A DNA stretch of 29,685 nucleotides. Source: a virus (Duplodnaviria; Caudoviricetes). The DNA lies in IMG/VR virus record IMGVR_UViG_3300005077_000083, positions 1 to 29,685 of that record, one strand, 5' to 3'. Shown in pieces: positions 1,693 to 27,750 of this stretch. The notes under the pieces were generated by a model. That model ran no database searches and was not told where the DNA came from. It saw only the letters and a list, made by a program, of their open reading frames with translations. The translations under genes were made by a program, and so were the position numbers. The first letter of the stretch is position 1. Each line of letters begins with the position of its first letter.

Positions 1693-1720
1693 CGTTCAGA
1701 TAACACCAATTACCGATACT
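1693..1720 (+). repeat. dif/Xer-like 28-bp site 1
   Basis: CGTTCAGATAA-CACCAA-TTACCGATACT, 2 bp after the tape measure stop. Confidence 0.85.
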
Positions 1721-1722
1721 GC

Positions 1723-3486
1723 CTATGGCACCAGCCCGGCCAGCAGCCCGGCCAGCCCGCCCTGTGCAAAATTCTGCACGCCACCATAAATTGTCACCGC
1801 GGTATTCGCTGCGCCCCTTACCTGATTGATTGCTCCCCCTGCCTGCTGCGTAGCCGATTTGATATTCATCAACCCCTGCAGCCCGGACTGGAACTGCTTC
1901 TCCATCCCGAGTTGCTCAGCCACGCCCTTTAGGAAATATGCCCCGAACGCGCCGCCCACGTTCAACGCCACTCCCGGCAGCGCCTCAGCCAACGCGCTGC
2001 CCATCTTGGTCAGGATCGGCGTCCAGGTCTCAACTTGGCCTACCAGTCCCTCCACGCCCTTGACCAACCCGCGTCCGGCGCTATCACCGAACTGCGCCAG
2101 CTGCGCCTGTGTCGTGGGGTCATTCGACCAGGTCTGGATCGAGGCTAACAACTTGTCCATCGTGCCCGGCACTTGGGCCTGTGCACCGTTAGCGCCCGTC
2201 ACCCATTGCCAGAATTCATTCGCCCACTTTTTCAGATTGGGCCAGATAACGTTCGTCCACCCCTCGCTGATCAGCTTGCCGATTTCATTGATGAGGCCCG
2301 GGATCCCGCCCTCAGCCGTAGCCCTTTGCAGCCGGTCAAAAATAGGAGTCAGCCAGCTCGTAATTTGCGCCGCAAACGGCTCCGCCCACTTGTTCACCTC
2401 TGCCGTGATGCTGTTGAGAGTGCCCGTCAACTGGGGTAGTGTCGTTTGCCCGATCTCAATGGGTACCGCAGTCAGAACGTTCTTGAACCGTTCCCATTGA
2501 AATTCCCACGTCTTGGACGACTCGGCAAAAGCCTTGTCAGTCGAACCCTGCGCTTGATACATGGCCGCCAATGTGGCAGCATACGTATCCCCCTGGCTGG
2601 CCGCCGATGACAGTACGCCTGTCAGCGCGCGGACGTTCGGGATGATGAGGTCCAACGTTTCCACATTGCCCTGCGTCCGCTGCATCATATCTGCCAGCGT
2701 TGCATTCAACCCGCGCTCACGGATCGATTTTTTCAACTCGTCCACCGACCAGCCGATCTCAGCCAGCGCGTCACGCGCCTGCTTTCCCGGCGCCAACAGC
2801 GCGCCCAGCGTGCCGCGCAGCGCCGTGGCCGCTTCCTCTGCGCTCAATCCCGTTAGCGTCATCGTCGAGAGGCTGGCCGCGACTTCCTCCATGCCCACTC
2901 CGCTGGCCGCCGCGATGGGCAGCACACGCCCCAGCGCCCCGGCCAGCGCGTCCGGCTCGCCCTTGCCCATCTTGACCGCCGTCGTCAAAATGTCCGTAAT
3001 GCGCGCCGCGTCCTTCGCCTGTAGCTTGTACGCATTCAACGCGCTGGTCACAGCGTCAGCAATCGTTTTGGTTTCGCCCAGTCCGGCCGCCGCCGCTCGC
3101 GCGCTCGGTTGCAACACGTCAAACGCCTCACGCCCGGCATAGCCAGACGACGCGATAAAGTACATCGCCTCGGCCAGCCCCTTGGCGCTCTTATCCGTTT
3201 CCTTCGACAGCTTGAGCACATCCGCCGACATGCCGGGAATATCCACCGCGGCCGTATCCGTCAGCCCCTTGATCCGGCTGAATACCGTCTCGAACCCAGT
3301 CGCCGCATTGAACCCGGCCCTGGCTGCATCGTTCAGCCCGTCAGTGATTTTCGTCAAACCGCTAAAAATCACACCGGCAGAGACTAGCTCGCTGATGCGT
3401 CCCAGTGCCCCGCCGACCGCGCCCAACGGCCCGCTCGCCCGGTCCTGCCCTTGCACCTTGATCGAGATCACATACTCAGTCGCCAT
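1723..3486 (-). CDS. Tail tape measure protein (TP901-type core)
   Basis: Ala/Gly-rich helical 587-aa ORF with typical TMP core (LAEAMYFIASSG...AARITDILT...). ATG at 3486 follows a GGGGAG RBS. Lies downstream of the chaperones. Confidence 0.92.
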   Translation of the reverse strand: MATEYVISIKVQGQDRASGPLGAVGGALGRISELVSAGVIFSGLTKITDGLNDAARAGFNAATGFETVFSRIKGLTDTAAVDIPGMSADVLKLSKETDKSAKGLAEAMYFIASSGYAGREAFDVLQPSARAAAAGLGETKTIADAVTSALNAYKLQAKDAARITDILTTAVKMGKGEPDALAGALGRVLPIAAASGVGMEEVAASLSTMTLTGLSAEEAATALRGTLGALLAPGKQARDALAEIGWSVDELKKSIRERGLNATLADMMQRTQGNVETLDLIIPNVRALTGVLSSAASQGDTYAATLAAMYQAQGSTDKAFAESSKTWEFQWERFKNVLTAVPIEIGQTTLPQLTGTLNSITAEVNKWAEPFAAQITSWLTPIFDRLQRATAEGGIPGLINEIGKLISEGWTNVIWPNLKKWANEFWQWVTGANGAQAQVPGTMDKLLASIQTWSNDPTTQAQLAQFGDSAGRGLVKGVEGLVGQVETWTPILTKMGSALAEALPGVALNVGGAFGAYFLKGVAEQLGMEKQFQSGLQGLMNIKSATQQAGGAINQVRGAANTAVTIYGGVQNFAQGGLAGLLAGLVP

Positions 3487-3494
3487 ACACAACT

Positions 3495-3532
3495 CCCCCT
3501 TCTCCCCCTGGGAGAAGGGAAGGGGATGAGGG
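3495..3532 (+). repeat. REP-like CCCTTCTCCC/GGGAGAAGGG hairpin repeat, copy 1
   Basis: CCCCCTTCTCCCCCTGGGAGAAGGGAAGGGGATGAGGG; near-identical copy at 6246-6287. Confidence 0.75.
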
Positions 3533-3534
3533 CT

Positions 3535-3562
3535 TATACTGGTAATTCAGCTTATCGCCACT
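3535..3562 (-). repeat. dif/Xer-like 28-bp site 2
   Basis: Minus strand AGTGGCGATAA-GCTGAA-TTACCAGTATA; overlaps the stop of the frameshifted chaperone. Confidence 0.85.
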
Positions 3563-3752
3563 AAAGCGCGGCATTCTTAGCCTCGATCTCCAGGCACGTC
3601 AGCGCCTCCAGCGCATCCCTCAGCGGAATCTTGCCCAGGTCTTGGGGTTGGCAGCGAAACACGTCACGCCACAGCCACACGCGGAACAACTCCGGCGGAA
3701 CGTCCTTGTGTTCAAAAGCGTACGTCCACAGCCGGAGCTTCAGGCTTTTCCC
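3561..3752 (-). CDS. Tail assembly chaperone C-terminal (gpT-like) segment reached by -1 frameshift
   Basis: Slippery G GGA AAA at 3752-3746; the -1 frame reads SLKLRLWTYAFEHKDVPPELFRVWLW...EAKNAAL to TAG at 3563-3561. Confidence 0.8.
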   Translation of the reverse strand, partial: GKSLKLRLWTYAFEHKDVPPELFRVWLWRDVFRCQPQDLGKIPLRDALEALTCLEIEAKNAAL

Positions 3753-4452: not shown

Positions 4453-4455
4453 GTT

Positions 4456-5797: not shown

Positions 5798-6180
5798 TAG
5801 ATCACCTCTCGCGCCACGCGCTGCGCCATGCCCTCGGCAATCTTGCGCCCCGCCTCAACTGCGGTGCGTCGATAAAAAGCGTGGGTGCCGCCGCGCTTTT
5901 CCTCGATCGGCCCGTACACCGATGTGAGTTGCCGTGTCCGTGGATTGCGTGCAGTCTTGTCCAGATAGATGCGCCCCGTGGCCCCAGACACGGCCATCCG
6001 GTGGCTGGCCCGCAGCGCGCCCGTGTCCACGTGCGTGATGCTCACCGCGTACCGGTGCGCCGCCGCCGTCCCCCACTGGACCGCCCGGCCCAGCGCGCCG
6101 CTCGGCCGCAGCGCCGCAATCGCCCGCGCGTTCCACCGTTGCGCCTCCTGGATACCCTTGATCGTCATGTCCACAGACAT
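5797..6180 (-). CDS. HK97 gp10-like neck/tail completion protein
   Basis: 'VDTGALRASH' and 'YGPIEE.RGG.HAFY' motifs; neck cluster position. Confidence 0.7.
   Translation of the reverse strand: MSVDMTIKGIQEAQRWNARAIAALRPSGALGRAVQWGTAAAHRYAVSITHVDTGALRASHRMAVSGATGRIYLDKTARNPRTRQLTSVYGPIEEKRGGTHAFYRRTAVEAGRKIAEGMAQRVAREVI
6167..6180. promoter_or_regulatory. 14-bp palindrome ATGTC-CACA-GACAT, copy 1
   Basis: Exact copies at 16011-16024 and 27841-27854; 1-mismatch copy at 22011-22024. Confidence 0.5.
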
Positions 6181-6185
6181 ACCTC

Positions 6186-6211
6186 GTAGGGGCGCACCTG
6201 CGTGTGCGCCC
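6186..6211 (+). repeat. GTAG-type REP-like hairpin, copy 2
   Basis: Identical to 1663-1688; abuts site 3. Confidence 0.8.
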
Positions 6212-6239
6212 TGTTCAGATAAGAGCGATTACCGATACT
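6212..6239 (+). repeat. dif/Xer-like 28-bp site 3
   Basis: TGTTCAGATAA-GAGCGA-TTACCGATACT. Confidence 0.85.
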
Positions 6240-6245
6240 GGCCTT

Positions 6246-6287
6246 CCCCCCCTTCTCCCCCTGGGAGAAGGGGCAGGGGGATGAGGG
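6246..6287 (+). repeat. REP-like CCCTTCTCCC/GGGAGAAGGG hairpin repeat, copy 2
   Basis: Near-identical to 3495-3532. Confidence 0.75.
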
Positions 6288-6288
6288 T

Positions 6289-7759: not shown

Positions 7760-8347
7760 TCACCTCAAATACAAGCGCGCGCTGACAGTCAGCGGGCTGG
7801 TGTTGGTCACATCCCAGAATAGCCGCATGTAGGGCCACTGGACATCTACCGTGACACTGGCGGCTGCATCGGCGACGTTGGCCGATACAATGGCGTTGCT
7901 CCCATCCGTCATGCCCGGATCGGCTTTGCCCACATAGTCGAACCAGGTCGAGGCATCGTAGGACGTTTGCAACTTGAGCGTGGTCGTGTTCTGCAGCGTA
8001 TCACCCAACTCCTGGTCAATCACATAGTACAGATCGGCCAGGGCGTAGGGGTTGCTGCCCCGGTGCCAGTTGATAAATTTGGTGTACTTGTCCGCCTCGA
8101 TGCGCGAGGTGGTGCTGATCACAACGCTGCGGCCCTCGACGGCCTGCGCATCGCTCACCACGGGCGCGCTCGCCGGCGGCTGCGCAATCACAGGCGACGG
8201 CTGGACCGCCCGCACCAGCGCAAGCGTGCGCGGCTCGACGATGCCCAGGTCATAGCCCAACACACCCGCGATCACCAGCAGCGCCGTGATGATAATCTTG
8301 GCGATGCTGATCCATTTTTCCTTCGTGATTTCCATCTCGTCCTCCAT
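7760..8347 (-). CDS. Hypothetical protein: N-terminal TM helix plus beta-rich C-terminal domain
   Basis: Hydrophobic 'WISIAKIIITALLVIAGVLGY'; C-terminal 'LKLQTSYDASTWFDY...WPYMRLFW'. Confidence 0.65.
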   Translation of the reverse strand: MEDEMEITKEKWISIAKIIITALLVIAGVLGYDLGIVEPRTLALVRAVQPSPVIAQPPASAPVVSDAQAVEGRSVVISTTSRIEADKYTKFINWHRGSNPYALADLYYVIDQELGDTLQNTTTLKLQTSYDASTWFDYVGKADPGMTDGSNAIVSANVADAAASVTVDVQWPYMRLFWDVTNTSPLTVSARLYLR

Positions 8348-8351
8348 GTCT

Positions 8352-8377
8352 GTAGGGGCGCTCCTGCAGGCGCGCCC
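8352..8377 (+). repeat. GTAG-type REP-like hairpin, copy 3 (variant)
   Basis: GTAGGGGCGCTCCTGCAGGCGCGCCC. Confidence 0.7.
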
Positions 8378-8380
8378 TCT

Positions 8381-8408
8381 AGTGCAGATAATCCCGATTA
8401 CCGATACT
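8381..8408 (+). repeat. dif/Xer-like 28-bp site 4
   Basis: AGTGCAGATAA-TCCCGA-TTACCGATACT, 10 bp after the capsid stop. Confidence 0.85.
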
Positions 8409-8418: not shown

Positions 8419-9315
8419 TTAGATCTCGTCCGTGCTCACGACCACGCCGTGGTTGTCACGCAACTCGGCCACGCCCCACAACGCATCCACGCTCACCATG
8501 TCGGCCAGGTCGTCATGGTCATACGACCGCGTGACGCGGATACCCATGCCATCCTCGCTCATCACGACCTGCTGCACGCCCAGCCCGGCCTCGGCCGTGC
8601 TCATGGGCCGCATCGCCAACACCATCGCGTCGCGTTGGAAGAACATGTTCTTGCACTGCCCGCCAGAGACGTTGATCGCCTGGTCCATGAACACGTCAAA
8701 GCCCATGAACCGCCCGCTCCAGGCATTGGCGGCCGCGCCGCCCAGGGCAGCCGCATACTGCGCGTTGATCGCCTTGTCCAGGCCAAGCAATTCATAGTCG
8801 GCATCCTCGTGCAAGACCGCCGAGCGTTGCGCCAGCGGCGCCTTGGCCGCATTGAGCAAGCGGCGCGCCTCGCGGAAATCGGAATCCGCCAGGCCCACCG
8901 TCGCGTCAATCGTCTGCGAGAATCCGCTGTACAGCGCAGCCAGCGTATCCTCGATTTTCTCGACGAGTACCGTGATCGCATCGGCCATATAGCCAGAGAA
9001 CTGATCGGGGCGGCTCAGCATCCGTGCAATGTCCTCCATTCGGAAGGGCACAACATAGTGCTGGTTGAGCGTGACCGCCGTGTAGGTGTCGGCGGGCGCT
9101 TGCGGCGTGAATGACGTATCCGCCGATTTGGCCGCCGCCGTCAGCGCGCCGCGCTGGGTGATGTTGACCGTCTGCCCATACGAGGCGACCTCATTTTGAA
9201 AGTCCCGATTGACCAGGCGCGCCAAAACCAGGTTGGCGCGCAAGGCCCCCAGTGCCTCAGCCGCAACAATAGTCGGAATGCTATCGCCGAGGGATGTAAC
9301 CGTTAGATTCGCCAT
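8419..9315 (-). CDS. Major capsid protein (HK97 fold, P22 coat-like)
   Basis: 298 aa: 'IPTIVAAEAL...LVNRDF...GQTVNI', 'GRFMGFDVF', 'DALWGVAELR'. AAGGAG RBS; follows the scaffold. Confidence 0.88.
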   Translation of the reverse strand: MANLTVTSLGDSIPTIVAAEALGALRANLVLARLVNRDFQNEVASYGQTVNITQRGALTAAAKSADTSFTPQAPADTYTAVTLNQHYVVPFRMEDIARMLSRPDQFSGYMADAITVLVEKIEDTLAALYSGFSQTIDATVGLADSDFREARRLLNAAKAPLAQRSAVLHEDADYELLGLDKAINAQYAAALGGAAANAWSGRFMGFDVFMDQAINVSGGQCKNMFFQRDAMVLAMRPMSTAEAGLGVQQVVMSEDGMGIRVTRSYDHDDLADMVSVDALWGVAELRDNHGVVVSTDEI

Positions 9316-10124: not shown

Positions 10125-10152
10125 AGTACCGGTAATGCGCCTTATCCGCACT
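10125..10152 (-). repeat. dif/Xer-like 28-bp site 5
   Basis: Minus strand AGTGCGGATAA-GGCGCA-TTACCGGTACT. Left arm is 9/11 identical to the E. coli dif XerC arm GGTGCGCATAA. Overlaps the stop of the minor head gene. Confidence 0.85.
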
Positions 10153-11059
10153 AGCGCCTACTCGTCGCGTGACTCGGCCAAATCCGAACGCGCGTTCCTG
10201 TCACCAACCGCGCCCTCAACTCAGCCCGCGCCGCATCCTGCATCTGCGAGGTAGGAACCCCTACATTCTCCATGTCCGCTGTATACAGCGTGATCGCCGT
10301 CCGGCATCGCCAATGGAAAGGCGGCCCCTGCAAGCGATTCGCAAAGCGCGGCTTGCCTGTCAGCACAAATGGGCTGTTGAGTGGCTGCACCTGGCCGTGC
10401 ACACGCAGGCAGCAATCTGTGGTGCGGTGGTCAATCGCCGCAATCGCCTGCTTTTGGAATCTCACCTGGCTGCGCTTTTGCGCCCGCTCAAACGCCATCC
10501 CCGTCAACCCCATCGCAAACGTCCACAGGTCCAGATCAGCTTCCAGCGCCAGGCTATTCTTGGCCGACCGCGCTACGCTCGCCCGCCCGTCAACAATCTC
10601 CACTGACATCAGCCGATCCACCATCGCCGCTCGATCCTCGCCCGTCAACCGCATTCGCCCTAGCTCGCCGCTAAACCGCATCTCGAATTGATCCACCCAC
10701 ATCGGCGAGCCGCCCAGCAAATCATCTGCCGCCCGCCGAGCATCCGAGCGGAACTCGCGCCGGATCGCGTCCATGTCCGCTACCTCTCCGAACCGGCCGG
10801 CCCCTTCGAGTTGTGCGGCGACAAACGCCTCAACCGCGTTCGTAACTCGTCCCTCGTAATCTCGCCCAATGCCGGCGGCGCGCTCGCTGAGCGCATCAAA
10901 TTCCCGCCGAACAACGGCGCGCGGCAACGGCCTCGCGGCCAACGCCTCCGCCAATCGCGCCCGCGTCCGTTCCCATTCGCGCTGTAGGTCAGCCGTATAT
11001 CCATCCAGCACCCCCGCCAGCGTGTCATTGAACCGGCGCGCTATCGTCAGGTCCGGCAT
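10151..11059 (-). CDS. Minor head morphogenesis protein (SPP1 gp7 / Mu gpF-like)
   Basis: C-terminal 'AAIDHRTTDCCLRVHGQ...PPFHWRCRT' signature; lies after the portal. Confidence 0.8.
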   Translation of the reverse strand: MPDLTIARRFNDTLAGVLDGYTADLQREWERTRARLAEALAARPLPRAVVRREFDALSERAAGIGRDYEGRVTNAVEAFVAAQLEGAGRFGEVADMDAIRREFRSDARRAADDLLGGSPMWVDQFEMRFSGELGRMRLTGEDRAAMVDRLMSVEIVDGRASVARSAKNSLALEADLDLWTFAMGLTGMAFERAQKRSQVRFQKQAIAAIDHRTTDCCLRVHGQVQPLNSPFVLTGKPRFANRLQGPPFHWRCRTAITLYTADMENVGVPTSQMQDAARAELRARLVTGTRVRIWPSHATSRR

Positions 11060-12338
11060 CCTCAACCTCATCCCCCGCCGCCTGAGCCTGTGAAAGGCGG
11101 CCCTCAACCGGCCTGGCCAGCGCGCGCGCCTGCTCTAGCTCAAGCGCCTGCATCTCTAATTGCACCATCGTCATGGGGTCCAGCGGCAATACGGGCCGGT
11201 CCTGGTCAAGTGCCAGCGTCTCATCATTTAGCGTGGTTATGTTGCCCAGCCCCATCGAGGCCGCCGCGCGCCCGGCCAGCTTCATCGCGCGCACCAGCCC
11301 ATCGTCATAGTTGGGCCGGCAACGCTTGATTTTGAGCACCAACTCCATCAACTGTAATTCCAACGTCGCCGTGGCAATCTGGTCCTTCTTGCGCAATTCG
11401 TCGAACGCCAGTTCTGGCAATGCCCCGAACACCTGATCGCGAATCTCTCGGATGAATTCCAGTACACCGGCCACGTCAACCTTGGGCACCAGGATTTCAA
11501 CCCGCCCGTCCTTATTCGGGAAAAACCAGACGTTATCCGAGCTATGCTCCAATTCGTCGCCTTGCGCGCCAAACACTGCCCACTGGGGATCAGAATTCTT
11601 GCGGATAATCTCGGCCAACTGGCTGGCCAGGCTATTGACCTCATCCAGGAGTGGGATCGCCTTTTGATAGGTGCACTCGCCCAACACGTCACCTGTTTCG
11701 ATGTGGCGCACCTCCACGAACGGTACCGCTTTCTGTGCGTTGGGATACGTGGCCTTGCGCCCATCAAATGATGTCAGTGCGCCGTCCTTGAACGTCCGTA
11801 CATCTGCGGGCGTCGTGACCTCAGCGTACTCGAAGGGCGTGCCATCCTCGCCGATGCGCTGCTCGATATAGATCGCGATCTGGGGCGTGCCATCATAGGC
11901 CGAGTTGGAATCCAGCAGCACACACGCTGGATTCACCGGCGCAATCATCACGCGCCCGGCCTCGCGCAAATCGGACACCTTGAGGCACGACACGCCATAG
12001 ACTGCCCCATAATGGATGTACAGCACGCCGCGCGTGTTCCACTTGGACATGTCCGATAGCGCCTTCCACGCCATCCCCCATGCCTCTGGCGCTTCATCCT
12101 CAAACGTCCACCCACCCGGGATAATGCCCGCATCCACATCCACCGCGCGCGCGAGGGGTAGATACAGCGCCTTGATACCCTTGCCCAGGCGAGGATACAG
12201 CCAGCGCAGCGCGTCATTGAGACCTCTATAGATCGAGCCGTCATAATAGGCCGCTCGCGTGCTCAACGCACTACATCGCGCTCGCCATCCTTCCTCATAC
12301 CGTTTGAATTCATCCAGGTCAAAAATTGTGTCGGCCAT
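11025..12338 (-). CDS. Portal protein
   Basis: 437 aa between terminase and minor head gene; 'AAYYDG' N-terminus and portal-like helices. Confidence 0.8.
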   Translation of the reverse strand: MADTIFDLDEFKRYEEGWRARCSALSTRAAYYDGSIYRGLNDALRWLYPRLGKGIKALYLPLARAVDVDAGIIPGGWTFEDEAPEAWGMAWKALSDMSKWNTRGVLYIHYGAVYGVSCLKVSDLREAGRVMIAPVNPACVLLDSNSAYDGTPQIAIYIEQRIGEDGTPFEYAEVTTPADVRTFKDGALTSFDGRKATYPNAQKAVPFVEVRHIETGDVLGECTYQKAIPLLDEVNSLASQLAEIIRKNSDPQWAVFGAQGDELEHSSDNVWFFPNKDGRVEILVPKVDVAGVLEFIREIRDQVFGALPELAFDELRKKDQIATATLELQLMELVLKIKRCRPNYDDGLVRAMKLAGRAAASMGLGNITTLNDETLALDQDRPVLPLDPMTMVQLEMQALELEQARALARPVEGRLSQAQAAGDEVEDAGPDDSAPVQ

Positions 12339-12360: not shown

Positions 12361-12388
12361 TGTACTGGTAAGACAAGTTATCGTTCCT
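12361..12388 (-). repeat. dif/Xer-like 28-bp site 6
   Basis: Minus strand AGGAACGATAA-CTTGTC-TTACCAGTACA; the TAA of the arm is the terminase stop codon. Confidence 0.8.
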
Positions 12389-13931
12389 CGTCCAGCATCT
12401 GTTCAATCTCTGCATCACTGCGAGCCGGGGCTGCCTGCGCGGCGCCGCCTTGCCTGGCATACCAATCCACCGACTTGCGCTTCATCTTGCGGCCCTGGTT
12501 CAGCCGGTTATACGCGCCGCTGCTTGCGTCAGACTGGTCTCGGAATGCTCCGTTCGGGATCGCGCACAGTTCCTCGATGTACGCCTGATTCCACGCGCCG
12601 CGCACCAACTTTACATTCCCCGCCTCGGCCTGCGCCGCGAACGGCTCCAGCCTCACGTCCTTGTCACCGGTGGGCCGGTCGGCCTCGACGATGAACCCGG
12701 CCAGCATCTTGATCTCATCGTCCACACTGTCTTTGCCGCTGCTGCCCGGCTCCTGCTCGATGCCGATGCGCACGCCCCGGCCATAGCGCGCCTGGTCAAA
12801 CTGCGCCGTCTGCAACATCACCTTGCGCCGGTTTCCAGTTGACCACTGCCCGCGCGCCATATCCTCGATGAAAATCTCGCCGCCCGCCTTGGCCATCAAC
12901 ACGCCCGCGCTATACTTGCCGCCGTCCTGCGTTGCTGCCTTGTCCCAATATCTTACCCGTTCGGCCTGGGCCGGGGCCGCGTCCACAATCCTGAACCACT
13001 CGCGCTTGAACCGGTTGCCCTCTGCAGCGCGCGGATCGCCGTCGTACTCTGCACTCCACACCAGACTGCCCACGTCCGTCCGGATCGCCGCCAGCGCCGC
13101 GGCGCTGAATCGGTGGGGGGCTAGTGGCTCGCCCGGCTTGCGCCCCACCGGATCGGGCTGCCCAGCACGCTGGCCCAGCCGCCGGGCGCGCTCGTCGCGC
13201 AACGTCTGCGACTCGGCCAGCGCCGGCAACCGCACCATCGTCCACTGGTTCCCCTGCTCGCCCAGCAGCCGCCCGGCCAGGTCATCCTCGTGCCATCGCG
13301 TCATCACCAGCACAATTGCCCCTGTCTCCCAGATGCGCGTGCGGAACGTCGAGCGGTACCAATCCCACACGCGATCCCGATACGTCTGGCTTTGCGCCTG
13401 CTCCCAGTTCTCAAAGGGATCGTCAATAATGCCCAGTTGCGCGCCGTGCCCGGTAATGGGACCGCCCACGCCCGCCGCCAGCAGCCGGCCACGTCGCCCG
13501 GCGATGCTCCACTCGTTCACCGCCCGCGAGTCCCTGGGTGTGCCCACCATAAACAGCCGTTGGTATTCCTCACTCTCCACCAAGTTGCGCGCCTGCCGGC
13601 TCTTGTTCTCCGCCAGCGCCGCAGCGTAACTCGTCAGTATGATCGGATCGTCGGGCCGCTTGCCCAGCCAAAAGGCGGGCAGCCGCACGCTCACCAACTC
13701 GCTCTTGCCATGCTGGGGTGGCGCAAAAATCATCAGCCGCCGCTCGTCGCCGGCCACCACGCGATCCAGCGTCGAGGCGATCAGCTCATGCACCGGGTCC
13801 GCCACATAACGGGGAAATGTATAGATGGTAAAGTTCAGCAGCCGTCGGCGCGCTTTACGCCGGCGGATCAGTTCACTTGCCGCCTCTTGCGGCGATACCT
13901 CTGCCTGCGGCAATATTGGCAAGCTCATCAT
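12378..13931 (-). CDS. terL: Terminase large subunit
   Basis: Walker A 'APPQHGKS', Walker B 'GIIDDP', 'MTRWHEDDLAG', nuclease 'YWDKA' and 'FRDQSDA'. Confidence 0.96.
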   Translation of the reverse strand: MMSLPILPQAEVSPQEAASELIRRRKARRRLLNFTIYTFPRYVADPVHELIASTLDRVVAGDERRLMIFAPPQHGKSELVSVRLPAFWLGKRPDDPIILTSYAAALAENKSRQARNLVESEEYQRLFMVGTPRDSRAVNEWSIAGRRGRLLAAGVGGPITGHGAQLGIIDDPFENWEQAQSQTYRDRVWDWYRSTFRTRIWETGAIVLVMTRWHEDDLAGRLLGEQGNQWTMVRLPALAESQTLRDERARRLGQRAGQPDPVGRKPGEPLAPHRFSAAALAAIRTDVGSLVWSAEYDGDPRAAEGNRFKREWFRIVDAAPAQAERVRYWDKAATQDGGKYSAGVLMAKAGGEIFIEDMARGQWSTGNRRKVMLQTAQFDQARYGRGVRIGIEQEPGSSGKDSVDDEIKMLAGFIVEADRPTGDKDVRLEPFAAQAEAGNVKLVRGAWNQAYIEELCAIPNGAFRDQSDASSGAYNRLNQGRKMKRKSVDWYARQGGAAQAAPARSDAEIEQMLDEER

Positions 13932-14451
13932 CGCTCAAGTCGTCCGCCCGCGTAATGGATACCGGCCCATCGTCAGCCCCCACCAGGTGCAGCTTGGATT
14001 CATCCACCACCACGCCGGTGATTTTGTAATAGAGCTGGAAATGCGCTGCGCTGGCCTCGCCGCCCATGAGCTGCGCCGTCAACGCCCGGTCCACATCCGG
14101 GCCAAACTCGTTCAACTTGCGCACGCGCGCCTGCTGCCCCCACGTTCGCAAGTCCCTGGGCGGCTCGCCATGACGCCGATTCTCCAAGGTCGCCAGCCGC
14201 GCCCGCGAAATGCCCAGCCACGTCGCCAGCTTTTGCAGCGTGTCCAGCTTGCCCGCCTTGCGCCCATCCTTGCCCAGCGACCACCATGCGGCGATCAGCG
14301 CATCGCGCTTGTTCAACCCGTTGGCAATCAGCCAGCGCAACGGATCGCGCCATTCCTCCGGCGCTGACTCAATCCATTCCTCGATCTCGCGCAGCGTGCG
14401 CGGCGAGTGCTCCTCGGGCGCATCATCCAAGAGCGTTTGTTGCCGGGCCAT
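13873..14451 (-). CDS. Putative terminase small subunit
   Basis: HTH-like 'LQKLATWLGISRARL' and C-terminal 'DDLSDDELANIA'; immediately upstream of terL. Confidence 0.7.
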   Translation of the reverse strand: MARQQTLLDDAPEEHSPRTLREIEEWIESAPEEWRDPLRWLIANGLNKRDALIAAWWSLGKDGRKAGKLDTLQKLATWLGISRARLATLENRRHGEPPRDLRTWGQQARVRKLNEFGPDVDRALTAQLMGGEASAAHFQLYYKITGVVVDESKLHLVGADDGPVSITRADDLSDDELANIAAGRGIAARGGK

Positions 14452-14695: not shown

Positions 14696-14723
14696 TGTTG
14701 CGGTAATACACATTATCAGCCGC
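14696..14723 (-). repeat. dif/Xer-like 28-bp site 7
   Basis: Minus strand GCGGCTGATAA-TGTGTA-TTACCGCAACA (outer bases more diverged). Confidence 0.75.
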
Positions 14724-15877: not shown

Positions 15878-16197
15878 TTCTTTTTCAAAAATGGATCTAT
15901 CTCTCTTCTTCTTACGGTTTTTGTTTTTTATTTCCTTTTACCCCCCTGGGCTAGTGCATTTGCACGTCTTAGACGTGCATTCACACCGGCAAGGGGATGA
16001 GGCGATCCGCATGTCCACAGACATACCGGTGATTTCGTAGGCGAGTGCACCGATAGAGTAGACATCAAAAAAGGCGAAGAGAATCTCTTCGCCTTCACCC
16101 ACCATCCATCTGGGCCATCGCCCGCATACGATGACGGTCAGCGTCTGGTGGGCTAGATGTGCATTTGCACGTCTTCACCAGTGTAAATGCACGTCTA
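15878..16197. other. Putative replication origin (AT-rich tract plus iteron-like repeats)
   Basis: T-rich tract ~15880-15940. 17-bp direct repeat GTGCATTTGCACGTCTT at 15954-15970 and 16159-16175. Inverted pair 15970-15986 / 16181-16197. Adjacent to the initiator gene. Confidence 0.6.
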
Positions 16198-17028
16198 GGT
16201 ACTATTGACAGAATCTATAAACCAATCCCGTGGATCGAACCCATACTGCTCCAGCCACTGATCGTGCTTGTGGCGCAGCGTGTCGGTAAGTCCCATTACC
16301 TGTACAGGGCTGAGCAGTGGCAAACGCACCGCCACGCTCACCACATACATCGTATGCGGATCGTGCAGATCGCCCTGCCGGCGGAACCGCCCGATCTGCA
16401 TCGCCTCCAGCTTGTCGAGCGCGCCTGGCTGGCGGCCCGAGTTGCGATTCACACCCACGATGGCCTGCGGCCCACAGGGCACCATCCTGGCCAGCGCGGG
16501 CGCGCTCCAGCGCCGCTCTGGCGTCCATTCGCTTTTCTCGCTGCGAATGTCGCTGCTCCGAACAATCTCCCACACCCGCCAGGCCACCCGGCCCAGCAGC
16601 GGCGCCCAAAAGTGCGACTCGTACTGACTGACGGGGAAAAATCCAACCCGCTTCAAGTCCGGCATCTCTGGAAGCGCGGCCGGCGTGTCAATCTGCTCGA
16701 TCCGTGGTGGAGGAGCGGCCGGCTCCGTCGTCTTATCCACAACAAACCGAACACTAACCGGATGGCCAACAATTCCAGACAACGTGCGCGTAATCATCGC
16801 ATCGAGCCGGTGCTCAAGCCAGTTTTTGGCGGACTGGTTGTGGACGCCAATCACAAGCTGGCCTTGCTCAACGCCTATCAGCCTCGCTCGACTTAGCCAG
16901 GTGTCAAACGTTGCTCCTGTCAACTGTAGCTGCAACTCGCCACAAGCCATCTGCCACACGCGAACAGGGTCTAAAATGTCCACTTTGTCAATCATAACGT
17001 TCGATGGTGAGAATTCAGTTGCGCTCAT
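16195..17028 (-). CDS. Putative replication initiator with DnaA N-terminal domain
   Basis: 'VWQMACGELQLQLTGATFDTWL...LVIGVHNQSAKNWLEHRL' matches DnaA domain I; no AAA+ motifs follow. Confidence 0.75.
   Translation of the reverse strand: MSATEFSPSNVMIDKVDILDPVRVWQMACGELQLQLTGATFDTWLSRARLIGVEQGQLVIGVHNQSAKNWLEHRLDAMITRTLSGIVGHPVSVRFVVDKTTEPAAPPPRIEQIDTPAALPEMPDLKRVGFFPVSQYESHFWAPLLGRVAWRVWEIVRSSDIRSEKSEWTPERRWSAPALARMVPCGPQAIVGVNRNSGRQPGALDKLEAMQIGRFRRQGDLHDPHTMYVVSVAVRLPLLSPVQVMGLTDTLRHKHDQWLEQYGFDPRDWFIDSVNST
16279..16306 (+). repeat. dif/Xer-like 28-bp site 8 (inside a CDS)
   Basis: CGTGTCGGTAA-GTCCCA-TTACCTGTACA. Confidence 0.75.
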
Positions 17029-18871: not shown

Positions 18872-18899
18872 CGTTCAGATAACTAGAGTTACCTATACA
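18872..18899 (+). repeat. dif/Xer-like 28-bp site 9
   Basis: CGTTCAGATAA-CTAGAG-TTACCTATACA, 1 bp after a stop. Confidence 0.85.
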
Positions 18900-18900: not shown

Positions 18901-19086
18901 CTATGCTGGCCGCCGACCGCGCCACATTTCGATCTCATTGATGCGCGCGTCCTCGTTCTGTTCGCGCCGCGCCAACAAACACGCCTGGCACGTGTCGGCC
19001 TTGCGCACCATGAACACCAGTGACGCAACGCCGTAGCCGATTACCATCACCAACGTTCCAGCACCAAATGCAATCAGCCAATTCAC
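18901..19086 (-). CDS. Small membrane protein
   Basis: 61 aa, one TM, GGAGG RBS, coupled to the upstream stop. Confidence 0.6.
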   Translation of the reverse strand: MNWLIAFGAGTLVMVIGYGVASLVFMVRKADTCQACLLARREQNEDARINEIEMWRGRRPA

Positions 19087-19790
19087 TGCACCACCTCCAC
19101 CACCTCCACAGATGCGCGTGACCGCCAGTTGCGCGCCGTTCTATCTGAAATATGGAATAGCCGTTGAATCTCTTCCGTCGTCATTCCGGCAACGTTCCGG
19201 CGAGTCTCATCATCCAAATCTCGCCATGCCGGAACCTTTCCGCTCGTGCCGGCACGTTCCGGCAACGTTCCGGCACTTGCCGGAATGACCGCCACGGCCT
19301 GATTATTGCTTTCCGGCATGTTACCGGAACTTTCCGGCATGTTGCCGTCAATCTGCGCGGCGATCCAGAGCCTGATGCGCGGCAAGATCGCGCCCTTCCG
19401 CACCGGCGCCGGCGGCAGCTTATCAACACGCCCTTGCAACCAGCCCAACAGCCCTACGGCAATAGTAGGGAACGCAGCATAGACAATCCCGGCCACCTGG
19501 AGCATCCGGTCAGCCCACGCGCCGGTGGCCAGCATCCCCCGGTACACCTCAGACATGTTGAAAATGAGATCCGCCAGCGCAAAGAATCCCAGCGATACCC
19601 CGGCTGCCACACGAGTGTGCGAATCCGCCACCTTGAGCCAATACGAGCACATGTACACGCCCAGGCCCAGCCCGACGGCGAATGGCCAGCCCAGCACCCC
19701 CGCCCCAAGCGCGCCCCCGGCCAGCGCCGCCACGCGCGCCAGCGTAATTCCAACGAACGATAAAGCCAACCAGGTCGGCATCCGTCTCAT
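19083..19790 (-). CDS. Four-TM membrane protein with C-terminal HTH (SpdA/DUF2637-like layout)
   Basis: Four hydrophobic segments, repetitive linker, HTH 'TTEEIQRLFHISDRTARNWR'. Confidence 0.7.
   Translation of the reverse strand: MRRMPTWLALSFVGITLARVAALAGGALGAGVLGWPFAVGLGLGVYMCSYWLKVADSHTRVAAGVSLGFFALADLIFNMSEVYRGMLATGAWADRMLQVAGIVYAAFPTIAVGLLGWLQGRVDKLPPAPVRKGAILPRIRLWIAAQIDGNMPESSGNMPESNNQAVAVIPASAGTLPERAGTSGKVPAWRDLDDETRRNVAGMTTEEIQRLFHISDRTARNWRSRASVEVVEVVQ
19184..19339. repeat. Phased TTCCGGCA/TGCCGGAA octamer array
   Basis: Exact or 1-mismatch copies start at 19184, 19195, 19227, 19247, 19257, 19268, 19278, 19311, 19322 and 19332. Confidence 0.8.
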
Positions 19791-20894: not shown

Positions 20895-20922
20895 CGTTCA
20901 GATAACCCTCATTACCATTACT
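20895..20922 (+). repeat. dif/Xer-like 28-bp site 10
   Basis: CGTTCAGATAA-CCCTCA-TTACCATTACT; overlaps the ParB-like gene stop. Confidence 0.85.
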
Positions 20923-23226: not shown

Positions 23227-23242
23227 AATGCCCTCGCCTGTG

Positions 23243-23482: not shown

Positions 23483-23822
23483 CGTTTCCCCCGTCCCGGT
23501 AACATCTATTACCGGTACAAACAAAAAAATCGTTTCCGAACCGCAGGCGCGCCGATGCGGTGATGGCTGCCCGCGTTTCGCTCAACAATCGTTCCTGATT
23601 CTCCAGGTCGGTCAATAGCTGGCGCACCTCCTCAGCCTGTTGCGCGATGCGGTACTTGCCGAAACTCCCGACGATCAGCCACCCCCGCCGGCGCAACTCG
23701 GCAATCATCTCCTTGACGCGGCCCTCGCTGCATCCAGTAAACACCTCCAACTGGTCCACCTGCACGCCCCGGGCAGGATAACAGCGCAGCGCCGCCAACG
23801 TAATTTCCAACGGAATCGTCAT
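23361..23822 (-). CDS. Winged-helix/HTH DNA-binding protein (3' end reads through site 11)
   Basis: 'QLEVFTGCSEGRVKEMIAELRRRGWLI...YRIAQ..EE'; ATGA-coupled start. Confidence 0.6.
   Translation of the reverse strand: MTIPLEITLAALRCYPARGVQVDQLEVFTGCSEGRVKEMIAELRRRGWLIVGSFGKYRIAQQAEEVRQLLTDLENQERLLSETRAAITASARLRFGNDFFVCTGNRCYRDGGNDGGKSQAAGADGAEHGQGCAVRGGRNCAGAPDSDYGHEAR
23492..23519 (+). repeat. dif/Xer-like 28-bp site 11
   Basis: CGTCCCGGTAA-CATCTA-TTACCGGTACA. Confidence 0.8.
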
Positions 23823-24403
23823 CTCTTGCATTTTCCACACTCGCACCGAGGCGGGAACCGGCAATCAACGGCCGCTAGAACATCCTTGGCCTTTTGCTCC
23901 AAGCGTTCCCCGCGCTCCTCTGAGCGGTTCAGCGAGTACACAAACAACTCGCCCGACTCGCGGCATTTATAGATGATGAGCGCCCGGCTATAGCCGCCGT
24001 ATCGCATATACATCTGGCACTGGTCCATGTGTTCAAAAAACGCGCCGTGCATGAGCACCAGGTCAAACCGCGCGATGCTAAGCGATTTGACCTCCAGCAA
24101 GTTTCCCTCGCACGCGCCGTCAATGTGACCTCTGACCCGTCCATCAAACCCGGCCACCAATTCCTTGCCGCGGTCAACCACGTTGAACTGGGCCGCTATC
24201 ATGCGCTCTAGCACGTCTCGCTCGTGCAAATAACCCTCGTGGCACATCAAGCGCCCGACTCGATTGGAAACACCGCCCTTCACCATGTCGTTATAGAGTG
24301 CCAGCGGGCATCGAGAAATCTGGCTCATGCCCAAGTAATCCCGTCTCTCGGAAAACTCTCGCACCGAATTCTCAATAGCCTTTCGAAGAGCCACCTTGTC
24401 CAT
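23819..24403 (-). CDS. Cas4-like / PD-(D/E)xK exonuclease
   Basis: 'LGMSQISRCP...G...H', 'GHIDG....LLEVKS', 'QCQMYM', C-terminal CxCxxC. Confidence 0.78.
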   Translation of the reverse strand: MDKVALRKAIENSVREFSERRDYLGMSQISRCPLALYNDMVKGGVSNRVGRLMCHEGYLHERDVLERMIAAQFNVVDRGKELVAGFDGRVRGHIDGACEGNLLEVKSLSIARFDLVLMHGAFFEHMDQCQMYMRYGGYSRALIIYKCRESGELFVYSLNRSEERGERLEQKAKDVLAAVDCRFPPRCECGKCKR

Positions 24404-24404
24404 C

Positions 24405-25619
24405 TCACACTCCCTCAAAAAAACTGCCAATCTTGGCCCACATCGGATGCCGGTCTCGCTTCATCGCCTTGAGATAAATCGCCGTCGTCGCCGGGCTGCT
24501 GTGATGCAACGTGCGCTGGATTTCCTCGATGCCTACATTGTTCTCGCTCATCCAGATCGCAAAACTGTGCCGCGTGATGTGCGTGTGTATCCGCTCCTCA
24601 GCCAACCCCGCGCGCTTGGCCGCGTGCTTGACGATGCGATTGACCCGCGCGCCGCTCAAGTGATTCTCCCCGCGCGTGCGGATAGTGCGGCCCGCCAGTT
24701 CCGCTTTGCGCTCAGCCATCCGCACACCCACGTCGCTCAACGGCTGAAACACATAGTCATCCTTGCTCATGCGGTCCAGCCGCCCGGCCGCCTTGAGATA
24801 GGCCAGGATAGCGTCATACGCTGGCCTCAGCAGCTCGTCGCGCCCGTTTTTCGCCTTGCTCTCCCAGGTGTAAAAAATCGGCGTACTGTCGCTCTTGGGG
24901 TGCTCAATATCCCCCCAGCGCAGAGAGGCAATAGCGTGCGACCGCTGGCCGGTGAGGAACAAACTGAGGATGAGGGCGTAATCCCGTAGCCCTTCCAGCC
25001 GGCTGCGGTCAATCCGCCGCAGCAGCGCCTGGAACTCGTCAAAGGAAATATATGTGGCAGAATCCGACTTGAACGGATCAATCTTGGTGCGGATCGGCGT
25101 CTCGCAGGGGTTGCTGAGGCAAAAGTATGTCATCTCACCCGTGATAGGGTGAACGTATTCTTGCCGTTTGAGGAACTTGAACAGCGAGGACAGCCCGGCC
25201 AGCCGCAAATTGATCGTCGTCTCGCTCAGTTCAGCCGCGCGCATCACATTCTGCCAGCGCACCACGTCCTGGCCGTGCACGCGCCACATCGCCACCCGCA
25301 AAATGCCGTCCTGGTCACGGTACGATAGGTTATCCAATTGCTCCAGCGCAAACGTCGTAAAGACTTCCACCGCGCGCGCATAGGACCGCTGCGTTTCTGT
25401 CGAACACTTTTTGCCATGCCAGCGCCACCCGCCGGCCATCCATTGGCCATACAAATCGGGATACCGCCGCGCCTTGTCCATATCCTCGATCGTGCGGTCC
25501 CGCTGTCGCTTGTCGGCAGCCACCCGATCCGCCTCGTCGAACACAAAACGCGGCTGCCCTGGGCGAGCCAGACCCATGTCCGGCATAATTGGCAAAACTA
25601 GAGCTTGACGAGTATCCAT
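24405..25619 (-). CDS. Second tyrosine recombinase (Xer-like), in the early operon
   Basis: 'TINLRLAGLSSLFKFL', 'RDYALI...TGQR', 'HITRHSFA', 'LHHSSPATTAIY': catalytic R, HxxR, H and Y present. Confidence 0.92.
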   Translation of the reverse strand: MDTRQALVLPIMPDMGLARPGQPRFVFDEADRVAADKRQRDRTIEDMDKARRYPDLYGQWMAGGWRWHGKKCSTETQRSYARAVEVFTTFALEQLDNLSYRDQDGILRVAMWRVHGQDVVRWQNVMRAAELSETTINLRLAGLSSLFKFLKRQEYVHPITGEMTYFCLSNPCETPIRTKIDPFKSDSATYISFDEFQALLRRIDRSRLEGLRDYALILSLFLTGQRSHAIASLRWGDIEHPKSDSTPIFYTWESKAKNGRDELLRPAYDAILAYLKAAGRLDRMSKDDYVFQPLSDVGVRMAERKAELAGRTIRTRGENHLSGARVNRIVKHAAKRAGLAEERIHTHITRHSFAIWMSENNVGIEEIQRTLHHSSPATTAIYLKAMKRDRHPMWAKIGSFFEGV

Positions 25620-25667
25620 ATCAAATCCTGGGGCCAGCCCGGTGGTGCCCCCCCGGCTAAAGGACGC

Positions 25668-25695
25668 TATACTGGTAATCGGCGTTACCGAGACT
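25668..25695 (-). repeat. dif/Xer-like 28-bp site 12
   Basis: Minus strand AGTCTCGGTAA-CGCCGA-TTACCAGTATA, 48 bp upstream of the recombinase start. Confidence 0.8.
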
Positions 25696-25762
25696 ATGAA
25701 TTCAGCCCGGCAATGACCGCAATAATGAAGATAAAAAAGCACGCTGCGGCTAAATACAACAT
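25694..25762 (-). CDS. 22-aa hydrophobic peptide
   Basis: MLYLAAACFFIFIIAVIAGLNS; purine-rich RBS; stop overlaps site 12. Confidence 0.4.
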   Translation of the reverse strand: MLYLAAACFFIFIIAVIAGLNS

Positions 25763-25811
25763 GTCATCCACCCTCACAATATACCTTCACAAGCGCAGCA
25801 TTTGTTGTTGC

Positions 25812-26210
25812 CTAATCGTTTATTGCCCGCGTCGATGATAAATCCGCATCCGGGGCAACGCTCGATGCGTGCTCGCGTGCCAGGTGATTGTTCAGATAGC
25901 CCGCCTTGGCAAACGTCCGCTCGCAGTTCGGGCAGGCATAGGTCGTCGTCGAGGCCGGGGCCGTACCACGGCGGGCGCCACGTGCGGCTTTTGGGGCGTG
26001 TTGCGTTCGCGTCCTGTCAGCGGCCTTCGCCTTTACCACGTCAGCCTGAGACGGATGCGGGGGTGGAAGCAAGTCAACCAGATGGTGCTGAATCAGGTCG
26101 GCGGCCAGGTGCAACCGGCCAAATTCTGCTGGAAAATGCGCGACGATTTTACTGGCGATGTCGTGCAGATCGCGCAAGGTATCCTCAAGGGAAAACTCGT
26201 TCATGCTCAC
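25812..26210 (-). CDS. C2H2 zinc-finger protein
   Basis: 'YACPNCERTFAKAGYLNNHLAREH'. Confidence 0.75.
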   Translation of the reverse strand: MSMNEFSLEDTLRDLHDIASKIVAHFPAEFGRLHLAADLIQHHLVDLLPPPHPSQADVVKAKAADRTRTQHAPKAARGARRGTAPASTTTYACPNCERTFAKAGYLNNHLAREHASSVAPDADLSSTRAIND

Positions 26211-26281
26211 CTCAAGTGAACTCTATAACGCGCATGGCCTCCGGTGGCGTCCCCTGGGGGAGCGCGCGGAGGCCATACACA

Positions 26282-26485
26282 TTACGCTGCGCCGATGTTC
26301 CCGGCGATTGCTACACGTTCGCCGGTGTCCGGCTTTTCAGCGCATGGCTCTGGAGCATCGTCAACCAATCGTTGGATCGCCTGGCTGAACTTGCGGATTT
26401 TGAGGGCGTTCATTATCCGCTCTACCTTCGCAACCTGAGAAGGGTAGAGGGTTACGTTCTGAGCTACGGCACGTTCCTCATCCAT
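26282..26485 (-). CDS. Cro-position ribbon-helix-helix-like regulator
   Basis: 'QNVTLYPSQVAKVERI...FSQAIQRLVD'; AGGAG RBS; divergent from the repressor. Confidence 0.65.
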   Translation of the reverse strand: MDEERAVAQNVTLYPSQVAKVERIMNALKIRKFSQAIQRLVDDAPEPCAEKPDTGERVAIAGNIGAA

Positions 26486-26522
26486 CTTGACTCCTTTACA
26501 GATAATCTTGAATACATTCCAG

Positions 26523-26552
26523 ATTGTAGCATGCAATGTGGTAAAATGTCAA
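26523..26552 (-). promoter_or_regulatory. Early lytic promoter
   Basis: TTGACA-18 bp-TACAAT with extended -10 TG in the AT-rich divergent gap; AATACATT repeated at 26511 and 26551. Confidence 0.7.
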
Positions 26553-26609
26553 TACATTACAAATTATTCGCACCAAATTCATAAAAACTCGTAGTACGAT
26601 ATTGCAAGC

Positions 26610-26978
26610 ATGGAATCATTTACTGATTGGCTCAACGAAGAGTTAGAACGACGTGGATGGTCGCGCAGCGAGGCAGCCAGACGTGGTAACGTCTCGGATT
26701 CGATGTGGGCCAAAGTCATTGGAGGATTTTCTCAGCCCGGCCCTGATTTCTTGATAGGCGTTGCCCGCGCCTTTGGCATAACTAGACGAGAGGTCTTTGA
26801 ACGCGCTGGCATGATAGAGTCCATCACCCCAATGGACGAAACAACAGTACACGACATCAACGAAGCCTTTGCGTTCCTCAGCCCAGAGGAACGCGCCATA
26901 TGGCTAAAGATGCTTCTCAGCTATGCCTCTGACAAACGTCGTGGATTGGAAACTAGTCCTTCAGACAATCGCGCTTGA
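26610..26978 (+). CDS. XRE-family HTH phage repressor (CI-like)
   Basis: 'FTDWLNEELERRGWSRSEAARRGNVSDS...PGPDFLIGVARAFG'. Confidence 0.88.
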   Translation: MESFTDWLNEELERRGWSRSEAARRGNVSDSMWAKVIGGFSQPGPDFLIGVARAFGITRREVFERAGMIESITPMDETTVHDINEAFAFLSPEERAIWLKMLLSYASDKRRGLETSPSDNRA

Positions 26979-27106
26979 TTGGGTGTTACTCTTTCATGTC
27001 CCGCGCAGCGAGTGGGGCATTATCCTGGATGGAATGCGCGCCCGTCCAACACGCCGCTGGCAAATCGTTCGCCTGGGCCCAGTCATCCTCGGTGCAGGGT
27101 AGGGGG

Positions 27107-27730
27107 ATGAACAAGCACCTTTACAACGCCGCCGCCGCGCTTCTCATCATCGTGCCGGTCTGTTGTGGCCTGGCCGCCCTGGGTGGCGCCATCACCTACG
27201 CCATCCGGCCGCCGGCTGCCGCCGTCGAGCCAACGCAGCCCTACATCATCACCCGCTCGGCCCGGCCAGCACCGGCCACGTCGGCGCCGCGCTCCATCGA
27301 GATTCCAATGGCACAGCCAACCCAAGCGCCCGCATCGGCGCCAACCAAATCACTTGCAACGCCAACAATGACGCAGGTTTTACCGTCAGCAACCAGGTCG
27401 CCCACTGCGCGCGCATCGGACACATCCAGGCCATCGAGCGCGGCTACGAACACATCGCTGCCCGTCATGGTTCAGCCTACGGCAATTCCAACAGCGCAAC
27501 CAACGGCACCCGCACGGCCAAGCATCACGCCCTGGCCCACCTCGACGTCCGCGCCGACGTATGAATCATCCGATTGCCCATGCGAGCAAGGCAACGTAAT
27601 GAATTGCCCAGACTTTCATAGTCAGGCACAAGCACAGGCTTGCTTCATAAAATGTGGCGGTCTGGGGAATGACATTCACGACCTGGATAGAGACCATGAT
27701 GGATTAGCCTGCGAGGACACTGTGTATTGA
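27107..27730 (+). CDS. Membrane-anchored Pro/Thr/Ser-stalk protein with C-terminal Excalibur-like Ca-binding domain
   Basis: N-terminal TM, long P/T/S/A linker, 'NCPDFHSQAQAQACF...DLDRDHDGLACE'. Confidence 0.78.
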   Translation: MNKHLYNAAAALLIIVPVCCGLAALGGAITYAIRPPAAAVEPTQPYIITRSARPAPATSAPRSIEIPMAQPTQAPASAPTKSLATPTMTQVLPSATRSPTARASDTSRPSSAATNTSLPVMVQPTAIPTAQPTAPARPSITPWPTSTSAPTYESSDCPCEQGNVMNCPDFHSQAQAQACFIKCGGLGNDIHDLDRDHDGLACEDTVY

Positions 27731-27750
27731 TAACCTGCATTACCGATACA
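27723..27750 (+). repeat. dif/Xer-like 28-bp site 13
   Basis: TGTATTGATAA-CCTGCA-TTACCGATACA; contains the stop codon of the upstream gene. Confidence 0.82.

Follow-up and report, generated by a model that had tools for sequence, protein, structure and literature searches.

Even arrays of dif-like dyads with non-repeating spacers in a group of temperate phages, and their possible role in genome circularisation

Results

Thirteen dyad sites lie at nearly regular intervals in a phage genome

The full virus record IMGVR_UViG_3300005077_000083, a stretch of 29,685 bp with an estimated completeness of 81% (the window, in what follows), carries 13 copies of a dyad site together with the gene for a tyrosine recombinase of the Xer/Cre fold. 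The window is a fragment of a temperate phage whose relatives are prophages of Chloroflexota. The host phylum is probably Chloroflexota, because the relatives of the recombinase in named genomes are mostly from Anaerolineae and other Chloroflexota. Scans of 53 window open reading frames against Pfam and PHROGs identified two tyrosine recombinases and a set of structural and packaging proteins, comprising tail and tape measure proteins, a P22-like coat, a scaffold, an SPP1-like portal and a large terminase. A repressor, a Cas4-domain exonuclease, a ParB-like protein and one with a DnaA_N domain were also recognised.

In each site, two 11-bp arms flank a 6-bp spacer to form a dyad of 28 bp, with the core G[AG]TAA-N6-TTA[CT]C. 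The 13 site starts and 12 gaps of the original prediction were all reproduced. The window contains exactly 13 matches to TAA-N6-TTA, one at each site, and the 13 sites carry 13 different spacers. With a half-site matrix the sites scored 15-33 bits, the next best place in the window scored 1.4 bits, and in leave-one-out scoring all 13 sites ranked 1-13; these scores exclude hidden sites that would break the regularity. The same scan detected no extra degenerate sites in the window, and no window sites with 5-, 7- or 8-bp spacers above 8.8 bits (for 8-bp spacers, none above 2 bits).

The sites run through all parts of the gene map. Site 1 (1693-1720, spacer CACCAA) lies between a tail gene and the tape measure gene, and site 2 (3535-3562, TTCAGC) upstream of the latter. 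Site 3 (6212-6239, GAGCGA) is followed by site 4 (8381-8408, TCCCGA), located after the gene for the P22 coat-like major capsid protein (8419-9315, minus strand), and by site 5 (10125-10152, TGCGCC). Site 6 (12361-12388, GACAAG) is found between the genes for the large terminase (12378-13931, minus strand; PF03237 and PF17289, phrog_38, predicted headful type) and an SPP1 gp6-like portal (11025-12338, minus strand; PF05133). The likely small terminase gene (13873-14451, minus strand) shows no family match and was assigned as a member of our family F3, which adjoins the large terminase in relatives. Site 7 (14696-14723, TACACA) is the weakest, at 15.4 bits. Site 8 (16279-16306, GTCCCA) falls inside the gene for the DnaA_N-domain protein, probably a replication initiator (16195-16995, minus strand), at codons about 230-238 and 97 bp from the 3' end. 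In a correction to the original prediction, site 8 is thus not at a gene boundary. Site 9 (18872-18899, CTAGAG) precedes site 10 (20895-20922, CCCTCA), where the ParB-like gene ends, and site 11 (23492-23519, CATCTA).

Site 12 (25668-25695, TCGGCG) lies 49 bp upstream of the start of the recombinase gene (24405-25619, minus strand; 404 aa), which is immediately followed by the gene for the Cas4-domain exonuclease (23819-24403, minus strand). The recombinase gene belongs to an early operon read from a strong sigma-70-like promoter at 26552 (26523-26552, minus strand; 11/12 match, extended -10). A helix-turn-helix (HTH) repressor gene (26610-26978, plus strand) comes next, and site 13 (27723-27750, CCTGCA) stands before an attP-like core (27890-27939, plus strand). 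The core appears tRNA-like by eye, and its 50 bp are identical to a host chromosomal stretch adjoining prophage genes; scans for tRNA genes and against Rfam, covering the window or the att region, gave no match (for Rfam, none at the core). It adjoins the gene for a canonical integrase (28126-29055, plus strand), which groups in a clade separate from the array recombinase.

Other repeats were seen near the sites. GC-rich hairpin repeats led by GTAG, which we take to be REP-like (repetitive extragenic palindromes), are present at 1655-1688, 6178-6211 and 8344-8377, directly beside sites 1, 3 and 4; such hairpins lie within 70 bp of a site in 3/3 cases in the window, 6/6 in the relative G001 and 6/8 in G002, and in fewer elsewhere. 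A second palindromic repeat (3493-3519 and 6250-6276) adjoins sites 2 and 3 in inverted orientation. Isolated strong half-sites occur at 28072-28102, 28212, 19321 and 4890; three of these lie in the interval from the attP-like core to where the integrase gene region starts. Short direct repeats at 19184-19341 lie within an HTH gene (19083-19781).

The gaps between sites average 2169 bp, with a standard deviation of 346 bp and a coefficient of variation (CV) of 0.16. When 13 of 46 curated gene boundaries were drawn at random the CV was 0.82-0.85, and none of 200,000 draws was as low as observed; by exact count, every gap falls inside the observed range in 1320 of 4.28e9 boundary subsets. Under the strictest null, confined to the 22 positions with an intergenic gap of at least 28 bp, 27 of 200,000 draws were as even as the window, and under uniform placement none of 200,000. 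The permutation test suggested with the original prediction thus bears out its claim that the spacing is far tighter than random boundary placement.

The array is conserved in related phages and prophages

Relatives were gathered from viral, genome and metagenome collections with an alignment of 33 recombinase homologues; the recombinase family comprises 521 clusters at E <= 1e-40. The first set held 28 records (the window, 26 whole records and one 6-kb fragment). Arrays spanning the genome, with spacers of 6 bp, 7 bp or both, were found in 16 of the 28, and 11 were without arrays; 6-bp and 7-bp spacers occur within one genome in G014 and L185. Five array stretches were added later: a prophage of G031, G051, G044, and stretches of prophage in G034 and G032, the last two with the recombinase encoded not in the fetched stretch but elsewhere in the same genomes. 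In total, the window and twenty related phage or prophage stretches carry arrays, typically with 2-4 kb between sites, and the relatives hold 9-23 sites per genome. In G032 C1, structural genes with 9 sites (about 62-81 kb) and early genes with the recombinase and 3 sites (3.071-3.075 Mb) lie 3 Mb apart, and represent either a split prophage or two remnants.

Irregular spacing in related phages would have spoken against the original prediction; instead, the gap CV was below the boundary-permutation null in 15 of the 16 array records (at most 61/20,000 permutations as even). G015 was the exception, before a 7-bp site filled its long gap. The 226 pooled gaps have a median of 2.48 kb and a 5-95% range of 0.95-4.1 kb. 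In 7/7 circular array records the array runs on across the junction, where the gap is 1.9-3.3 kb, and in host genomes the arrays stop where the prophage genes stop. A host-wide grid was considered and rejected, as core counts per host genome (6-27) are at background (control, 8-20). The evenly spaced array is real and conserved.

Array-less relatives mostly keep a single near-palindromic site, often directly after the recombinase gene. This arrangement is like that described for XerS/difSL and XerH modules (PMC5357621), and with the FtsK-like genes in 7/16 array records it would suit a Xer/dif-like role in redundant multimer resolution, or in separating interlinked daughter circles step by step, possibly aided by an FtsK-like motor of the phage. 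Resolution needs only one site, however, and evenness is not predicted; nor was an FtsK-like gene found among the 53 window proteins scanned (the window being 81% complete) or in 9/16 array records. We regard this role as improbable.

Site-first scans of viral contigs returned 100 loci, mostly single chance-like matches, with arrays in a few; a single-protein scan of viral contigs returned nothing, and a replication-gene scan no new relatives. Three site-first records, G041, G042 and G043 (L302, L335 and L367), contain local clusters of 4-8 similar dyads, and this recombinase family is absent from them; the clusters are possibly pdif-like modules or sites of another enzyme. G006, a close relative of an array prophage, has only three sites (6260, 19331 and 32532) with gaps of 13.07 and 13.20 kb, either a sparse even grid or a decayed one, and about eleven copies of a different repeat between 15655 and 32073, some in a 35-bp tandem run. 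The array-less relative G021 carries consecutive genes for prokaryotic E2, JAB and ThiF proteins, a ubiquitin-like module (L143, 6711-8879).

Site position appears to be under selection

By our own gene caller, 34 of 242 sites fall inside genes and 208 are intergenic; intragenic sites near gene ends may be miscalls. The sites in the DnaA_N gene occupy its conserved C-terminal part in G000, G004 and G005, the linker in G001 and G002, and the end of the N-terminal domain in G008 and G009; the gene has no site in G006, G007 and G010. Removing the site would leave a gap of 3.3-5.7 kb. We infer that these sites arose independently, by point mutation where a site was needed and not by cassette insertion. 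Position itself appears to be selected, since the sites occupy one conserved gene at three different positions.

The intergenic majority, together with the site just upstream of the recombinase gene, would be compatible with dispersed operators like mycobacteriophage stoperators, at which bound repressor or recombinase damps prophage transcription. Stoperators are short asymmetric sites oriented with transcription. Unlike these, the window sites are 28-bp dyads in mixed orientation; across the arrays, too, the sites are 28-29-bp dyads of dif geometry with free 6-7-bp centres and not short asymmetric oriented boxes, the orientation given by a first spacer base T is mixed relative to transcription, and the arrays track recombinase family and terminase type. 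An operator function is therefore very improbable.

The evenness in 15/16 records and the DnaA_N-gene site, found at three positions in three lineages and absent from array-less relatives, support the original contention that selection acts on the spacing itself. That contention was joined to a physical role, in which bound recombinase halts or unloads Wadjet/SMC complexes, acts likewise on nucleases moving along the DNA, or divides the circle into domains. Selected position, in both its forms, would fit such roadblocks, and JetD_C was detected in 2/10 host genomes, both with array prophage DNA. XerD is described as unloading SMC in B. subtilis (PMC12322038), and closed-hinge Wadjet is reported to have failed to cut circles with two bead obstacles (PMC12647877). 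However, a single obstacle is described as focusing Wadjet cleavage and not preventing it, and SMCs as bypassing most bound proteins (PMC12647877, PMC12322038). Moreover, a motor crossing the whole circle would meet every site, so that the number of sites, not their spacing, should matter.

A Xer/Cre-type recombinase likely acts on the sites

The recombinase possesses the R-K-H-R-H/W-Y set of tyrosine recombinases (R226-K255-H347-R350-H373-Y382) and a core-binding and catalytic fold. Its closest solved sequence is archaeal XerA (5HXY, E 2e-22). A structure model (predicted local distance difference test score, pLDDT, 85) matched XerA and Cre-loxP complexes; Cre-loxP chains make up most of the top fold matches (template modelling score about 0.55), at a sequence identity to Cre of about 15%. 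The full catalytic motif is present in 34 of 35 family members. The sole exception, G010, has lost both array and motif. Site arm variants differ between lineages. The linkage of gene and sites, the lineage-specific arm variants and G010 together suggest that the recombinase likely acts on the array sites.

Spacers are unique within genomes and conserved between them

Among 263 six-bp sites, no spacer is repeated within a genome. Between genomes, spacers are shared above chance (47 against 28.8 expected), and at that sharing rate 3.4 within-genome repeats would be expected (P about 0.03 for their absence); a plain column-shuffle null for non-repetition is weaker (P 0.07-0.10). Orthologous spacers are kept better than their flanks and, in two of three genome pairs, better than 4-fold sites (identity of 0.89, 0.71 and 0.78 for spacers, 0.72, 0.75 and 0.66 for 4-fold sites, and 0.52-0.63 for flanks). 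T is the first spacer base at 225 of 424 strand ends. Unique, conserved spacers, T as their first base and the complete catalytic motif in 34/35 family members are left unexplained by bound roadblocks.

Exchange at the sites probably happens, as comparisons between genomes suggest. Orthologous spacers are identical at the four free positions in 25/44 pairs, against about 11 expected at 4-fold rates, and one 7-bp spacer is identical in 8/8 sequences with largely unrelated flanks, the homology ending at the arm edge. Between G004 and L165, identity falls within one site, in its right arm, and is regained at the following site, at its left arm. Steps in identity are also larger at site boundaries (p 0.002; against long intergenic boundaries, p 0.03). 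All this would be expected if the sites were addresses and two crossovers, at neighbouring same-spacer sites, swapped cassettes of 2-3 kb with co-infecting phages or a resident prophage, in a natural cassette exchange, with even spacing minimising linkage. Nevertheless, alignment edges are not enriched at sites (17/58 against 34/141, p 0.28), many mosaic patches lie away from them, spacers of the pair G004/G005 are conserved no more than 4-fold sites, and spacers recur at non-orthologous positions (G032 compared with G004). Second-order selection would, in addition, be weak as a cause of three separate recodings of one conserved gene, and the absence of arrays from cos packagers (see below) would be left unaccounted for. 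That exchange is what the array is for thus seems possible but doubtful. On either side of a variable region, G008 (13671/16802) and G009 (32614/35991) carry the same two adjacent spacers in opposite order.

Arrays are associated with terminases other than the HK97 type

Array-less records are rich in a PF03354/phrog_9 terminase, a P27-type small subunit and an HK97-type head. We take PF03354 as a marker of cos packaging. The terminases of the array stretches are of the phrog_38, phrog_2, phrog_979 or phrog_675 type. The PF03354/phrog_9 terminase was found in 0/21 array stretches and 9/17 array-less records (Fisher p 1.5e-4), a count that includes G028 on a partial phrog_9 match and omits fragments that lack a terminase, G054 (a fragment of 6.8 kb and cos type), the site-first records G041-G043 and the metagenome loci. 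Held-out records fit the rule: G050 is HK97-type with one site, and G051, G044 and two prophage stretches are non-HK97 with arrays. In the recombinase trees, which are quick trees, cos-type records stand among array records (G013 with G012 and G014; G010 with G000, G001 and G002), and G010, nested among array phages, has an HK97-type terminase and no array. HK97 itself is described as the type 3' cos packager (PMC5000459). That arrays are lacking in HK97-type cos phages, which also circularise, would be left unexplained by roadblocks. While spacing under selection stands, the roadblock or domain role proposed for it accounts for neither the spacers, the catalytic motif nor the terminase pattern, and we consider it unlikely.

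For the window genome, we predict headful packaging with circular permutation and terminal redundancy. G004 has a phrog_38 terminase, of the same family as that of the window, about 34% identical to the terminases of Aaphi23 and the B. avium IFTN phages, which form a group reported to package by the headful mode and to have permuted, terminally redundant DNA (PMC10269795); the best matches of the window terminase itself are uncharacterised proteins.

An even array may circularise permuted, terminally redundant DNA

The explanation we favour, with a probability of roughly 0.55, is that the array circularises injected permuted and terminally redundant DNA, as a generalised form of P1 Cre/loxP. 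Headful packaging would leave a terminal redundancy of roughly 2-4 kb, and in permuted virion DNA a different stretch would be repeated at the ends of each molecule. With gaps no longer than the redundancy, almost every virion DNA would have some site at both ends, and the recombinase, made early, would recombine the twin copies of that site into a unit circle without RecA or an annealase. Only twins would share a spacer; the different spacers would prevent deletion or inversion between non-twin sites, in the prophage as well. Long gaps would carry a direct cost in virions, and this cost would account for the origin of sites within genes. The exchange of modules at same-spacer sites by related phages would be a side effect.

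Several observations are consistent with this proposal, among them the evenness in 15/16 records, the distribution of terminase types, the G010 record, the non-repeated spacers and the three site positions in the DnaA_N gene. The largest gap amounts to 7.9-11.9% of the unit length in 7/7 circular array records. Assuming a redundancy of 3 kb, a twin site is present in 100% of window permutations, against 81% for random boundaries, and in 74-100% of permutations across the 16 array records (at least 80% in 15). Cre circularises the terminally redundant DNA of P1 itself. It is also described as circularising P1-packaged linear DNA on entry (PMC2841073). Headful phages are reported to package 102-110% of the genome and to circularise by homologous recombination (PMC5000459), and terminal redundancy is described as essential for their circularisation (PMC6316719).

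A number of points weigh against circularisation by the array. The terminase association comes down to only 3 independent pairs (2.5 in the same direction, 0 opposite; p 0.25, not significant), and packaging mode was read from terminase families alone. G020, G047, G048 and G024 have the terminase family of the window and yet one site each, G006 has three sites 13 kb apart, and G022, G025 and G027 have none. Four array stretches (G011, G015, G030 and G034 C36) encode a phrog_675-type terminase, for which the best named matches are 26%-identical terminases of Bacillus myoviruses. That Bacillus group consists of fixed long-repeat packagers, and with such packaging a genome-wide grid would not be needed. 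RecT, ERF, Rad52/Sak and AAA_24 proteins were found in 0/30 records, which would suit circularisation without an annealase but does not discriminate, because annealases are missing from array-less records too.

The gaps themselves raise further objections. Series started at pac usually permute part of the genome only, SPP1 being described as 'partially circularly permuted' (PMC6316719), and gap size in the arrays showed no dependence on how far a gap lies from the small terminase (rho 0.06). The capsids of G004 and G008 are 85% identical and their genomes measure 36.3 and 42.2 kb, yet their gaps are similar. Across records, mean gap and record length were not significantly correlated (rho 0.35, p 0.18). 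The pooled gaps are right-skewed (+0.84) with no sharp upper cut-off, and G044 contains one gap of 6.8 kb.

Discussion

In its proposed action the array would be akin to P1 Cre/loxP, and in appearance it resembles single-recombinase Xer/dif and pdif systems, but it differs from each in a defining feature. P1 has one loxP, of 34 bp (13 + 8 + 13). The likeness to P1 lies in a single phage-encoded tyrosine recombinase paired with dyad sites; unlike P1, the array genomes belong to integrating phages, encode an integrase besides, and hold 9-23 evenly spaced 11 + 6/7 + 11 sites with a distinct spacer in each. In engineered heterospecific lox cassette exchange, chains with incompatible spacers allow like-with-like recombination only; those systems are synthetic. 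Cre is described as keeping P1 monomeric (PMC2409434, PMC10999674). With the single-recombinase Xer systems (archaeal XerA/dif, XerS/difSL and XerH/difH), as described in PMC5357621, the arrays share the 11 + 6 + 11 site, the R-K-H-R-H-Y set and a site adjoining the recombinase gene. Xer/dif has one site per replicon, at the chromosome terminus, where it serves dimer resolution, unlike the many heterospecific sites on these phage genomes. XerS and XerH depend on FtsK, and XerA does not.

Acinetobacter pdif modules resemble the array in that a single mobile replicon holds many dif-like sites of 28 bp whose centres vary, with module exchange at the sites, and are described as host XerC/XerD sites found mainly in accessory regions (PMC6449649). 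Unlike these, the array sites tile head, tail and replication genes evenly, enter genes, and accompany an element-encoded recombinase. In B. subtilis, too, a Xer-family protein is bound at several dif-like sites, but that XerD system is chromosomal, in the terminus region, and relies on a host enzyme. We know of no even spacing or unique spacers at the B. subtilis XerD sites. Integrative mobile elements exploiting Xer (CTX-type) have one dif-like attP and no integrase of their own, unlike the window, with its canonical integrase and separate attP-like core. In the literature searched, with subscription papers mostly outside coverage and supplements excluded, we found no description of such arrays and no natural genome-wide lox array.

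We suggest, tentatively and at somewhat less than even odds, that a Chloroflexota phage family evolved a genome-wide, orthogonal lox-like array tuned to headful redundancy, and that the same grid delimits exchangeable cassettes, providing both a mechanism of mosaicism and a library of orthogonal recombinase-site pairs. If so, the array would be a third route to the circularisation of headful DNA, beside homologous recombination and the single loxP of P1, and, to our knowledge, the first case of recombination-site spacing set by capsid geometry. It also makes testable the old question of whether phages can exchange modules at fixed linkers through a mechanism that is site-specific and dedicated to this. 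Finally, each genome offers 10-20 naturally non-repeating spacers, which would be of direct use for orthogonal recombination tools.

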